Assembly (NCBI RefSeq): GCF_054482525.1
Contig: NZ_CM137006.1
Strand: one strand, 5' to 3'
Length of the DNA: 64,000 bases
The notes under the pieces were generated by a model. The model searched no databases. It was given only the letters and a program-made list of their open reading frames with translations, and was not told the DNA's origin. This document shows positions 2,220-7,631 of this stretch, piece after piece; the stretch's first letter is position 1; every line of letters starts with the position of its first letter. Both the position numbers and the translations under genes were made by a program.

Positions 2220-2329
2220 TTGACAACATCTGGTACGATTCGCCCGCAGCCATCACTGACCACGGGCGAAAGTGTAAAGCAGGTGCCTTACCATCCTGAC
2301 CTGACAACCGGATATGCGGGGATTACTCC

Positions 2330-3668
2330 CATAAGCGCTAACTTAAGGGTTGAACCATCTGAAGAATGCGACGCCTCGGTGCCTCGTTAAGACGATGCCT
2401 CGCGTTCTTCAATTGCGTTTTGTAGGCTGTCAGGGATACTGTCCCACGAATGGCCACCTGTAAGCTCCAGATGACCATTTTTGTTATTCTCCACAACGAG
2501 TTAGTTCTTCTTTTCGGATCCGGCACTTCTGGGGGGGAAATCCAGCGATGGCTGGATTATGTCGTCAATTAAAAATGCGGCGAGTAGATTAGCAAATATC
2601 CACGCTTTCGCGAGTTCAGGTTCCTTTGCACGCAAAGCATCCAGGTGCAGCAAACTTTTGAGCCGCTTAAAAGCCAGTTCAATTTGCCATCGCAGACGGT
2701 AACAATCAGCCACTTGCTCTGCTGAATATTCATCTTCCGGTAATGATGTTAGCAATAGCACATGGCCCGCTGCTTCCAGCGTTTCCGCCTGAACTACTCG
2801 TCCTTTTCGACGATTCTCGCTGAGCAGTCGGGTTTTACTGATTAATGCTTTTTCGGGAGGAAGTGATACGGCAATGAGACGTGCCGGAAAGGGAGCTCCG
2901 GCTTTTTTATTACCTGAATTGCCTATCATTACAGTGGTTTCACCGTTCTTACCGCAATCCAGCCCGCGCAGAAAACCCATCATGTCAAAGCGCATTCCTT
3001 CTGCAGTTAACCAGCGCAATCCTCGCCAGTGAACCCGGACGATATAATCAGCTTCTCCAAAAGCAAGTGAGCGGATACATTCGGGACGCGAACCGAATCC
3101 CCGGTCAGCAATGCGTATCTCGTCTGCCGTTTGCGCAAATCGGTCCAGCCGTTCAGCGTCTCTGCTGTCGGTTAGCTCAAAATCAGTGAACTGACAGGTA
3201 TGAGGATCATATCCCATATGTAGTCGCCATTCAGCGCTGCCGCCCCCGGGCGCACTGATTGCTGTTCCATCGACAAGACGCAATCTCTTTCCGCTTGTAC
3301 AACCCGTAACTGCGGCGCGTACAGCAAGTGTTTGTGCGGCAAGTATGCCAAACCAGTCGGCGGCATTCCGCAGCCGCTTCAGGAGAGCCACGTCAGATAA
3401 TGTTGCAACGTCATGGAGCTGAGCCCATGCAGTGACTTCACGTAATGACATCCCCCCGGGGCCGTAAGCCAGCCCCAGACGTAGCAGAGTTGCAGCATCA
3501 CGAATTTCGCGGCGGCGGGTTAGAGCCCCGGCATTACGTGCCGAAGTATCCAGTTCTTCGGGCTTACCAATATGGGCCAGAATTGCTGACCAGTTATCGT
3601 GAGAGTAATTCATCGGCACGTTAAATCATATCAGGCGTAATACCACAACCCTTAAGTTAGCGCTTATG
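2330..3668 (-). mobile_element. IS186 (IS4 family), copy 1, 1339 bp
   Basis: Terminal inverted repeats cataagcgctaacttaagggttg (2330-2352) and its reverse complement (3646-3668); flanked by direct repeat ggattactcc (10-bp target duplication) within a GGGG-N6-CCCC hotspot. Confidence 0.92.
2501..3619 (-). CDS. insL: IS186 transposase InsL
   Basis: 372-aa ORF MPMNYSHDNWSAILAHIGKPEEL... (canonical start probably at MNYSHD, 3613); identical protein to the copy-2 ORF. Confidence 0.92.
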   Translation of the reverse strand: MPMNYSHDNWSAILAHIGKPEELDTSARNAGALTRRREIRDAATLLRLGLAYGPGGMSLREVTAWAQLHDVATLSDVALLKRLRNAADWFGILAAQTLAVRAAVTGCTSGKRLRLVDGTAISAPGGGSAEWRLHMGYDPHTCQFTDFELTDSRDAERLDRFAQTADEIRIADRGFGSRPECIRSLAFGEADYIVRVHWRGLRWLTAEGMRFDMMGFLRGLDCGKNGETTVMIGNSGNKKAGAPFPARLIAVSLPPEKALISKTRLLSENRRKGRVVQAETLEAAGHVLLLTSLPEDEYSAEQVADCYRLRWQIELAFKRLKSLLHLDALRAKEPELAKAWIFANLLAAFLIDDIIQPSLDFPPRSAGSEKKN

Positions 3669-3689
3669 GGATTACTCCCCGCACAACGG

Positions 3690-3842
3690 CTACTTCTTCG
3701 GTTCGTAAGCGAGAACAGCCTTAAACTCAATATTACGTTCCTTCACCGTAAACTCACACAGCGAGTCGCGGACCAGAAGCGTAAATCCCAGCACCGTTAA
3801 ACACAGCACTATGACTGCCACAAGGGCATATTTCGTCAGCAT
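3690..3842 (-). CDS. Hok-family type I toxin (hokE-like paralog, locus 1), 50 aa
   Basis: [50 protein letters not shown]; single TM helix plus the conserved R-D-S-L-C-E motif of Hok/Gef peptides; stop 21 bp from the IS186 end. Confidence 0.85.
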
Positions 3843-3987
3843 GTTTATATTGCCTCCATGCGAAGAAGGGACTACCATCCGAGTTGTTGAGGTTCGGAGT
3901 GGCAGCCCCAGGATTGATAGAAATATCTCCTGGGGCTTCATCTTTCCAGACCTCAGAGTAAACCTGAAACCGGAAAGCTTCAGGCAC
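3754..3987 (-). CDS. mok-like overlapping reading frame (locus 1); canonical mok ATG is shifted into the hok frame here
   Basis: 77-aa track ORF in the mok frame from a GTG at 3987; the ATG that starts Mok in locus 2 (atgaagccccag) is in frame with hok in locus 1 because of a 1-nt indel, giving the 83-aa track ORF 3690..3941. Confidence 0.4.
3885..3945 (+). ncRNA. Putative Sok-type antisense RNA (locus 1)
   Basis: Plus-strand promoter-like TTGCCT (3850-3855), 17-bp spacer, TACCAT (3873-3878), antisense to the hok/mok leader; placement by analogy to K-12 sokE/hokE spacing. Ends are approximate. Confidence 0.35.
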
Positions 3988-4181
3988 CCGCTGTTATCTT
4001 ACCCTTCCTTAGCAAAATAACTGTTTATTTATACAGCTAGTCCTGTTTCGGACTTCTGTTGGCAACACTCGTTATTGCTCGTAAAACGACATCGCCCGCA
4101 GCCATTGCTGACCGCGGGCGAAAGTGTAAAGCAGGTGCCTTACCACCCTGACCTGACAACCGGATATGCGGGGATTACTCC

Positions 4182-5520
4182 CATAAGCGCTAACTTAAGG
4201 GTTGTGGTATTACGCCTGATATGATTTAACGTGCCGATGAATTACTCTCACGATAACTGGTCAGCAATTCTGGCCCATATTGGTAAGCCCGAAGAACTGG
4301 ATACTTCGGCACGTAATGCCGGGGCTCTAACCCGCCGCCGCGAAATTCGTGATGCTGCAACTCTGCTACGTCTGGGGCTGGCTTACGGCCCCGGGGGGAT
4401 GTCATTACGTGAAGTCACTGCATGGGCTCAGCTCCATGACGTTGCAACATTATCTGACGTGGCTCTCCTGAAGCGGCTGCGGAATGCCGCCGACTGGTTT
4501 GGCATACTTGCCGCACAAACACTTGCTGTACGCGCCGCAGTTACGGGTTGTACAAGCGGAAAGAGATTGCGTCTTGTCGATGGAACAGCAATCAGTGCGC
4601 CCGGGGGCGGCAGCGCTGAATGGCGACTACATATGGGATATGATCCTCATACCTGTCAGTTCACTGATTTTGAGCTAACCGACAGCAGAGACGCTGAACG
4701 GCTGGACCGATTTGCGCAAACGGCAGACGAGATACGCATTGCTGACCGGGGATTCGGTTCGCGTCCCGAATGTATCCGCTCACTTGCTTTTGGAGAAGCT
4801 GATTATATCGTCCGGGTTCACTGGCGAGGATTGCGCTGGTTAACTGCAGAAGGAATGCGCTTTGACATGATGGGTTTTCTGCGCGGGCTGGATTGCGGTA
4901 AGAACGGTGAAACCACTGTAATGATAGGCAATTCAGGTAATAAAAAAGCCGGAGCTCCCTTTCCGGCACGTCTCATTGCCGTATCACTTCCTCCCGAAAA
5001 AGCATTAATCAGTAAAACCCGACTGCTCAGCGAGAATCGTCGAAAAGGACGAGTAGTTCAGGCGGAAACGCTGGAAGCAGCGGGCCATGTGCTATTGCTA
5101 ACATCATTACCGGAAGATGAATATTCAGCAGAGCAAGTGGCTGATTGTTACCGTCTGCGATGGCAAATTGAACTGGCTTTTAAGCGGCTCAAAAGTTTGC
5201 TGCACCTGGATGCTTTGCGTGCAAAGGAACCTGAACTCGCGAAAGCGTGGATATTTGCTAATCTACTCGCCGCATTTTTAATTGACGACATAATCCAGCC
5301 ATCGCTGGATTTCCCCCCCAGAAGTGCCGGATCCGAAAAGAAGAACTAACTCGTTGTGGAGAATAACAAAAATGGTCATCTGGAGCTTACAGGTGGCCAT
5401 TCGTGGGACAGTATCCCTGACAGCCTACAAAACGCAATTGAAGAACGCGAGGCATCGTCTTAACGAGGCACCGAGGCGTCGCATTCTTCAGATGGTTCAA
5501 CCCTTAAGTTAGCGCTTATG
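4182..5520 (+). mobile_element. IS186 (IS4 family), copy 2, 1339 bp, inverted relative to copy 1
   Basis: Same 23-bp terminal inverted repeats (4182-4204 and 5498-5520); same ggattactcc flanking duplication in a second copy of the hok 3-prime region; internal ORFs are identical to copy 1. Confidence 0.92.
4231..5349 (+). CDS. insL: IS186 transposase InsL
   Basis: 372-aa ORF identical to the 2501..3619 protein. Confidence 0.92.
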   Translation: MPMNYSHDNWSAILAHIGKPEELDTSARNAGALTRRREIRDAATLLRLGLAYGPGGMSLREVTAWAQLHDVATLSDVALLKRLRNAADWFGILAAQTLAVRAAVTGCTSGKRLRLVDGTAISAPGGGSAEWRLHMGYDPHTCQFTDFELTDSRDAERLDRFAQTADEIRIADRGFGSRPECIRSLAFGEADYIVRVHWRGLRWLTAEGMRFDMMGFLRGLDCGKNGETTVMIGNSGNKKAGAPFPARLIAVSLPPEKALISKTRLLSENRRKGRVVQAETLEAAGHVLLLTSLPEDEYSAEQVADCYRLRWQIELAFKRLKSLLHLDALRAKEPELAKAWIFANLLAAFLIDDIIQPSLDFPPRSAGSEKKN

Positions 5521-5541
5521 GGATTACTCCCCGCACAACGG

Positions 5542-5694
5542 CTACTTCTTCGGTTCGTAAGCGAGAACAGCCTTAAACTCAATATTACGTTCCTTCACCG
5601 TAAACTCACACAGCGAGTCTCCGACCAGAAGCGTAAATCCCAGCACCGTCAAACACAGCACTATGACTGCCGCAAGGGCATATTTCGTCAGCAT
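5542..5694 (-). CDS. hokE: Hok-family type I toxin HokE-like (locus 2, adjacent to ybdK), 50 aa
   Basis: [50 protein letters not shown]; position next to ybdK matches K-12 hokE; has G where locus 1 and other Hok peptides have R. Confidence 0.8.
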
Positions 5695-5794
5695 GTTTAT
5701 ATTGCCTCCATGCGAAGAAGGGACTACCATCCAAATTGTTTGGGTTTGGAGTGGCAGCCCCAGGGTTGATAGAAATATCGTCCTGGGGCTTCAT
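5606..5794 (-). CDS. Mok (modulation of killing) overlapping reading frame, locus 2
   Basis: 62-aa [65 protein letters not shown] starting upstream of hok and ending inside it in a different frame, the canonical hok/mok arrangement. Confidence 0.55.
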
Positions 5795-5797
5795 CTT
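5737..5797 (+). ncRNA. sokE: Putative Sok-type antisense RNA (sokE-like, locus 2)
   Basis: Plus-strand TTGCCT (5702-5707), 17 bp, TACCAT (5725-5730); predicted transcript is antisense to the mok start region. Ends are approximate. Confidence 0.4.
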
Positions 5798-6125
5798 TCC
5801 AGACCTCAGAGTAAACCTGAAACCGGAAAGCTTCAGGCACCCGCCGTTATCTTACCCTTCCTTAGCAAAATGGCTGTTTATTTATACAGTAAGTCCTGTT
5901 TCGGACTTCTCAATCCTCATTTGATCAACTGAAGCTGAACCCGTTTTTTTCTGCATGCCTCAATCGTCAAAATTCTTCGCCACCAGTCCGCACTGCCATA
6001 ACTTGTCATATTGCAAAATGTAGCCAATTTGCTTCAGTCACCATCATCAAAAAAAAACATTCCAGAACTTCCGCATCTCGCCCAGTCGCTCCCACTTCTA
6101 TACTGAATAGAAAACGCCAACATAA

Positions 6126-7253
<1,128 letters not shown>

Positions 7254-7567: not shown

Positions 7568-7631
7568 ACGTCGATTATCGCCGTACTTCGCGGCATACTT
7601 TGCTTATTCTCCTTCGCCTAAAGGAACGTTT

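Follow-up and report, generated by a model that had tools for sequence, protein, structure and literature searches.

The 64,000 nucleotide stretch of contig NZ_CM137006.1 (assembly GCF_054482525.1) analysed here, referred to as the window, contains two tandem hokE/sokE type I toxin-antitoxin units on the minus strand (2240-5910), between entD and ybdK (6135-7253). The entD and ybdK flanks match the annotated neighbours in K-12 and in 14 other genomes, and the ybdK-entD position is the one expected for this Hok/Gef type I toxin. The two units, which we define as locus 1 and locus 2, are about 96 % identical to each other, and each has a LexA box, a leader matched by an Rfam model, a region homologous to K-12 sokE and a toxin gene. 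The hokE coding sequences were taken from the list of open reading frames and their translations. Locus 1 (3690-3842, minus strand) encodes a 50 aa product with arginine at residue 25 (Arg25), and locus 2 (5542-5694, minus strand) a 50 aa product with glycine at this residue (Gly25) that is identical to K-12 HokE. Both are exact matches to public proteins named HokE, the locus 1 peptide being present on at least 1000 contigs in public records. Membership of the Hok/Gef family follows from PF01848, which is on record for the 50 aa products as well as for the 83 aa product described below, and the LCE motif and two cysteines are visible in both translations.

At the hok promoter, a LexA box of the form CTG-N10-CAG, CTGTATAAATAAACAG, is found in locus 1 (4021-4036, minus strand) and in locus 2 (5874-5889, minus strand), each an exact match with 0 expected by chance. 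The SOS regulation itself is known from the literature, where hokE is named as one of the toxin genes that have a Lex box and are induced in the SOS response (PMC2826370). The hok mRNA 5' leader of locus 1 (3834-3989, minus strand, with a 5' end at about 3989) holds the hairpin GCCCCAGGAGAUAUUUCUAUCAAUCCUGGGGC and matches Rfam RF01794 with 84 bits (E 4.7e-18), while the locus 2 leader matches with 82 bits (gathering threshold 59). The corresponding fold z-scores of − 4.2 and − 2.9 are those of structured leaders. RF01794 is named 'sok antitoxin', yet the 157 nt that it covers (3834-3989 and 5686-5842, minus strand) are on the hok-sense strand, and it describes the hok mRNA leader rather than the roughly 60 nt antisense RNA.

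The antisense RNA SokE of locus 1 was placed at 3886-3945 on the plus strand, with both ends set by homology to sokE as annotated in K-12, which covers − 44 to − 103 relative to the hok ATG. The K-12 gene (607733-607792) maps to 3886-3945 and to 5738-5798 in the window. The Sok − 10 box TACCAT of locus 1 lies at 3873-3878, and a terminator hairpin is readable in the sequence. In a simple sigma-70 promoter scan, neither hok nor sok had a site that reached the threshold.

A complete unit would consist of a promoter with a LexA box, a structured hok mRNA leader, the antisense SokE gene, a 50 aa Hok/Gef membrane toxin and, at the 3' end, a fold-back (fbi) element with a terminator. The promoter, LexA box, leader, Sok region and an intact toxin ORF are kept in both units of the window; the 3' elements are no longer contiguous with them. 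Each is split from its hok gene by a 1349 nt IS186 insertion, located 21-24 nt past the hok stop codon at a GGGG-N6-CCCC site. Copy 1, with one copy of the target duplication, spans 2330-3678 on the minus strand (transposase ORF 2501-3619, minus), and copy 2 with its target duplication spans 4182-5530 on the plus strand (transposase ORF 4231-5349, plus). The two copies are 100 % identical and in opposite orientation, with 1369 nt arms that are 100 % complementary. The inverted IS186 pair brackets locus 1 like a composite element.

For the hok transcript of locus 1, the 3' end that was cut off lies at 2240-2329 (minus strand) and comprises a candidate fbi element, AGGCACCU, and a terminator hairpin; it was recognised as a direct repeat with 4092-4204. 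That of locus 2 lies at 4092-4181 (minus strand), where an fbi candidate was placed from the direct repeat and from IS-free loci and the terminator (4092-4121) by the terminator scan. The AGGCACCU element is complementary to the hok mRNA 5' end, with which it is predicted to pair, and in IS-free loci these 3' elements are contiguous with hok. When both 1349 nt insertions are removed in silico, the remaining sequence is identical over 1503/1503 positions to E. coli PCN033 (CP006632.1). PCN033 carries the same tandem pair, with a +1 frame Gly25 upstream copy and an in-frame Arg25 downstream copy, but has no IS186 in either copy, and its fold-back elements and terminators are contiguous with hok. 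Because PCN033 has the same allele pair without IS186, the pair predates the insertions, and the complete identity to this IS-free locus indicates that the insertions are recent and independent events at the same hot spot.

By analogy with R1 hok/sok, K-12 hokC and hokE, without the 3' fold-back pairing and a normal 3' end neither copy would make the inert full-length mRNA, and the usual route from an inert to a processed transcript would be closed to both. On the same analogy it is likely that neither copy works as a regulated killer module. Beside the R1 model, the work of Pedersen and Gerdes in 1999 reportedly supports the inactivation of such hok loci by IS186. The hok gene of locus 1, like K-12 hokE, reads into IS186 in the sense of the transposase (2501-3842, minus strand), while locus 2 reads in antisense. 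It is conceivable from this arrangement that read-through from the LexA-controlled hok promoter could extend into the IS186 transposase of locus 1.

The initial annotation of this region took an upstream ATG in each leader for the start of mok, placing it in frame with hok in locus 1 and at the head of an out-of-frame ORF of 62 codons in locus 2. As a description of the reading frames this is correct. In locus 1 the ATG at 3941 (minus strand) lies 99 nt before the hok ATG (3843-3941) and opens an uninterrupted 83 aa ORF (3690-3941) that ends in HokE. In locus 2 (leader 5695-5842, minus strand) the ATG at 5794 precedes the hok ATG by 100 nt and, with an extra C, opens a +1 ORF (5606-5794). The two leaders differ here by a single base, GGA-GAT in locus 1 and GGACGAT in locus 2, at a site that in locus 1 falls between 3927 and 3928.

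A leader ORF of the MokC type, predicted to give an N-terminally extended Hok if its start codon is used, is therefore present in locus 1 and absent from locus 2. The exact 83 aa product of locus 1 is also found in PCN033 and in other strains, at IS-free loci. Since K-12 MokC is itself HokC with 19 additional N-terminal residues, that is an in-frame mok, such an ORF is not abnormal. The K-12 hokC/mokC/sokC locus resembles the units described here both in having a leader ORF in frame with the toxin and in carrying an IS186 just 3' of the toxin gene.

Where the initial annotation goes astray is in holding that locus 1 departs from the canonical hokE layout, for K-12 hokE has the same GGA-GAT, the same 99 nt spacing and the same in-frame 83 aa ORF. 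The K-12 hokE/sokE locus with IS186B (b4415, b4835) shares with the window the ybdK-entD position, the LexA box and the IS186 site after the stop codon; its 50 aa toxin is that of locus 2, while its 99 nt in-frame leader and IS orientation are those of locus 1. It differs from the window in being a single unit rather than two in tandem and in having no second, inverted IS186. Locus 1 is further distinguished from it by Arg25, Val8 and a different Sok-recognition segment.

The in-frame arrangement is also present in IS-free hokE loci of E. albertii, E. whittamii (in both copies), Escherichia sp. E1V33 and several E. coli, which is the very finding that the initial annotation had said would count against its reading. 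In-frame 83 aa products are on record from E. fergusonii, the cryptic Escherichia clades and Shigella flexneri, with two sequences each on at least 1000 contigs. In a non-random sample of 28 hokE copies, the leader ORF is in frame and open (83 aa) in 12, in frame with a premature stop (17 aa) in 2, in the +1 frame (62 aa) in 7 and in the +2 frame (22 aa, with its end 32 nt short of hok) in the other 7.

To describe these alleles in 5426 complete E. coli genomes we counted exact leader haplotypes with queries of 87-89 nt; the counts are upper bounds, as the '>=99%' band may contain partial matches. The K-12 in-frame type is the commonest of those counted by these bounds (at most 2165 records), followed by the +2 type (at most 615), the locus 2 type (at most 349) and the locus 1 type (at most 136). 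The indel alleles were counted with megablast queries of 54-57 nt in which every 28-mer spans the variant, a design that is effective for the indel: leaders without the C are found in 4603 complete E. coli genomes and leaders with the C in 2735. The excess of matches over genomes is explained by tandem hokE copies. A paralogue inflating the counts was considered and rejected, the leader of the second Escherichia hok locus being too divergent to seed matches. All three leader frames circulate in E. coli.

The one-base difference had been read as a deletion in locus 1. We examined its polarity in HokE-like loci from other genera and species, 23 of which fit the hairpin pattern; 22 of these 23 have one base between GCCCCAGG and GATA, and by eye the remaining family loci, outside the pattern, mostly give the same one-base reading. 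With one base at the indel site in nearly all relatives, it is locus 2 that carries a derived C insertion, and locus 1 has suffered no deletion. Locus 1 would accordingly represent a leader of ancestral length, as in K-12, in which a lineage-specific upstream ATG is in frame with hok. The indel site lies in an internal loop of the leader hairpin, the opposite strand of which is the SokE terminator. The calculated free energy of this hairpin is − 19.4 kcal/mol in locus 1 and − 17.7 kcal/mol in locus 2, and − 18.0 kcal/mol in the remaining one of three variants. Since the hairpin is predicted to be stable in all variants and the indel falls in the internal loop, the indel is probably near-neutral for the structure.

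These results bear directly on the explanation proposed initially, namely that locus 2 keeps the canonical coupling mok while locus 1 lost it through a one-base deletion, resulting in altered control combined with a more active Arg25 toxin. The locus 2 ORF is indeed in the +1 frame relative to hok, as are R1 mok and K-12 mokB, and arginine is the residue of most relatives. Set against this are the occurrence of the locus 1 state in K-12 and in outgroup species, the related loci pointing to an insertion in locus 2, and an ATG that does not occupy the R1, mokB or mokC position relative to Sok. The second half of the explanation depends on residue 25, encoded by CGC (3768-3770) in locus 1 and by GGA in locus 2.

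The statement that locus 1 retains a conserved arginine is fair for the relatives as a group; within E. coli, Arg25 is a minority allele. Of 53 HokE-like loci taken from species-representative genomes, 36 have Arg at residue 25 (CGC in 23, the commonest codon at this position), 14 have Gly, 2 have His and 1 has Cys. In E. coli the exact CGC context is found in 280 records, and in at most 473 genomes since the CGC query also caught GGC alleles through its right-hand seed, so that only the exact-match band of 280 records is allele-specific; GGN is found in 5163 genomes at 7599 places. CGC is one substitution away from GGC and two from the GGA of most E. coli hokE copies, and the GGC and GGG intermediates linking the Arg and Gly states are found. 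In strain 7/2, Arg25 is combined with a +1 frame leader, so Arg25 and the in-frame state are unlinked, a further point against coupling the two as the deletion account does.

The Gly25 HokE of MG1655 is reported to be toxic on overexpression (bioRxiv 10.1101/2025.08.07.668861), which also speaks against that account. According to the same study, seven positions are conserved in over 80 % of Hok sequences; Arg27 of Hok R1 is not one of them, and toxicity was not abolished by alanine substitutions at the seven. Any greater toxicity of the Arg25 allele is not implied. Overall, we regard the loss of mok by deletion in locus 1, together with a more active toxin, as very improbable.

Taken together, the observation made initially is confirmed and its main interpretation is unsupported: the difference is an ordinary polymorphism at an already known locus. 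Judged from the comparison of alleles, the in-frame upstream ATG represents common natural variation rather than a lesion with an effect on the control of the toxin. We are rather confident in the reading that the window holds two tandem chromosomal hokE/sokE units whose leader difference is standing natural variation, each with an IS186 after the hok stop codon. The claim as first made has little consequence, the "shifted" frame being the K-12 reference state of a long-known locus. What is put on record here is that hokE is frequently duplicated in tandem, that its leader frame is polymorphic and that IS186 has repeatedly used one site. Its use lies in the annotation of type I toxin loci, for which the R1 hok/mok layout is no safe assumption in chromosomal hok loci; the understanding of the system is unchanged.

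The upstream ATG itself is a doubtful mok start. The R1 hok/mok/sok system resembles the units in the window in its Hok/Gef toxin, its Rfam-matched leader, an antisense RNA over the leader and a 3' element with complementarity to the 5' end of the mRNA. In R1, mok starts about 58 nt upstream of hok, out of frame, and is required for hok translation (PMC9841398). The annotated starts of mokC and mokB are at a similar distance from hok, 57-58 nt upstream, and each lies under the 5' end of the corresponding Sok RNA. The hokE ATG differs from these: whereas mokC starts at − 57 under the 5' end of SokC, the hokE ATG lies at − 99, opposite the 3' tail of SokE and about 40 nt further 5' than the R1 mok start. 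At − 57/− 58, neither an ATG nor a GTG is present in locus 1, locus 2 or K-12, and hokE, which is chromosomal and has a LexA box, is thus unlike R1 hok in having no start codon at the R1 mok position.

The only leader ATGs are those at − 99/− 100, − 36 and − 17, the last of which opens an ORF of 4 codons. At the position of the − 99 ATG other genera have ACG, ACA, GTG or ATA. Being off the R1, mokB and mokC position and unconserved outside Escherichia, the upstream ATG is probably not a mok start in the R1 sense, contrary to what had been assumed. Given the tolerated indel and the three circulating frames, it would not be a frame-constrained mok start of the R1 type either. The K-12 annotation contains no mokE, and a literature search for 'mokE' returned nothing relevant. 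We also considered the in-frame ATG at − 36 as the true mok and rejected it, as the Sok − 10 box TACCAT reads ATGGTA on the opposite strand. An ATG at − 32 to − 36 is widely conserved in the family; for the same reason, this conservation need not mean coding.

Alternatively, the upstream ORF may be a hokE-specific equivalent of mok in which translation matters and the peptide and its frame are irrelevant, so that all alleles are functional and the in-frame ones add an 83 aa Hok. Ribosomes starting at the ATG would unfold the leader and, in the 0 or +1 frame, get as far as the hok ribosome-binding site, while those in the +2 frame would stop at a UAG 32 nt upstream of the hok ATG. A GAGG located 9 nt 5' of the upstream ATG makes initiation there plausible, and if ribosomes do start at this codon, the in-frame allele would give a MokC-like extended Hok, for which MokC itself is the precedent. 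The ATG is inside the region complementary to SokE, and the ORF passes the hok start in 19 of the 28 copies; in R1, translation of mok need only reach the hok Shine-Dalgarno or ribosome-binding site (PMC9841398). Against such a role, the ATG is absent in most genera of the family, the ORF ends 32-48 nt before the hok start in 9 of the 28 copies, K-12 has no annotated mokE, and two of three frames are open past the indel site anyway, which makes an open ORF weak evidence.

Also in line with a translated leader is the restoration of frame 0 by paired indels. The C insertion goes together with the loss of one base about 45 nt downstream in E. whittamii and in two of the E. coli strains sampled; the 99 nt in-frame ORF is thereby restored, and the peptide encoded between the two sites is a different one. 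Such pairs may reflect recombination or selection for the frame. On balance we see the mok equivalent as a possible but not a favoured explanation.

Another explanation for the scatter of frames is that hokE is a decaying remnant under relaxed selection, in which case the frames, the premature stops and the change from Arg to Gly would be neutral and without regulatory meaning. Three frames, premature stops and IS186 or IS150 insertions in many strains fit such a decay, and some chromosomal hok loci are described as degenerate in reviews (PMC4147584). Conservation across Escherichia species is, however, high for the Hok peptide, leader hairpins, LexA box and terminator, and none of the 40 columns of the hok start region (− 20 to +19) is variable in the 28 copies. 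Variation is instead unevenly spread and clusters in the Sok-recognition segment. General decay of the locus is for these reasons unlikely.

The segment concerned, − 41 to − 60 from the hok ATG (3883-3902 and 5735-5754), is a hot spot of variation, with 9 of 20 columns variable in the 28 copies. It is complementary to the 5' tail of SokE, and the two copies in the window differ in it at 5 positions, including one compensatory stem pair. From their location, these differences could limit cross-talk between the two Sok RNAs. A more elaborate hypothesis is that the − 99 leader ORF is a real coupling ORF with a freely drifting frame, giving three interchangeable 'mok' frames and, where in frame, an 83 aa Hok, while the − 60 to − 41 segment diversifies such that tandem copies escape each other's antitoxin. 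We think it quite unlikely that this combination holds as a whole.

Tandem duplication of the whole hokE unit, with a period of about 502 nt without IS, is common in E. coli, many genomes carrying two copies (8081 hokE places in 5346 genomes). The same duplication is seen in E. whittamii and Escherichia sp. MOD1-EC7003, whereas the K-12 unit is single. Escherichia and Pseudocitrobacter have in addition a second HokE-like locus that is 78-80 % identical and has Gly (GGC) at residue 25. It has its own upstream ATG, with a leader ORF mostly of 18 codons that ends about 44 nt before hok. On the strand opposite to the hok leader, an ORF (5663-5932 and 3811-4020, plus strand) corresponds to an 89 aa hypothetical protein annotated by PGAP in many genomes and often flagged as frameshifted or interrupted by an internal stop, owing to these leader indels; it is probably an artefact of annotation. 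The window also contains, to the entD side of the locus, an Rfam match to the sRNA ES036 (CssrF) at 1499-1540 on the plus strand, with 42.2 bits against a gathering threshold of 37.6.
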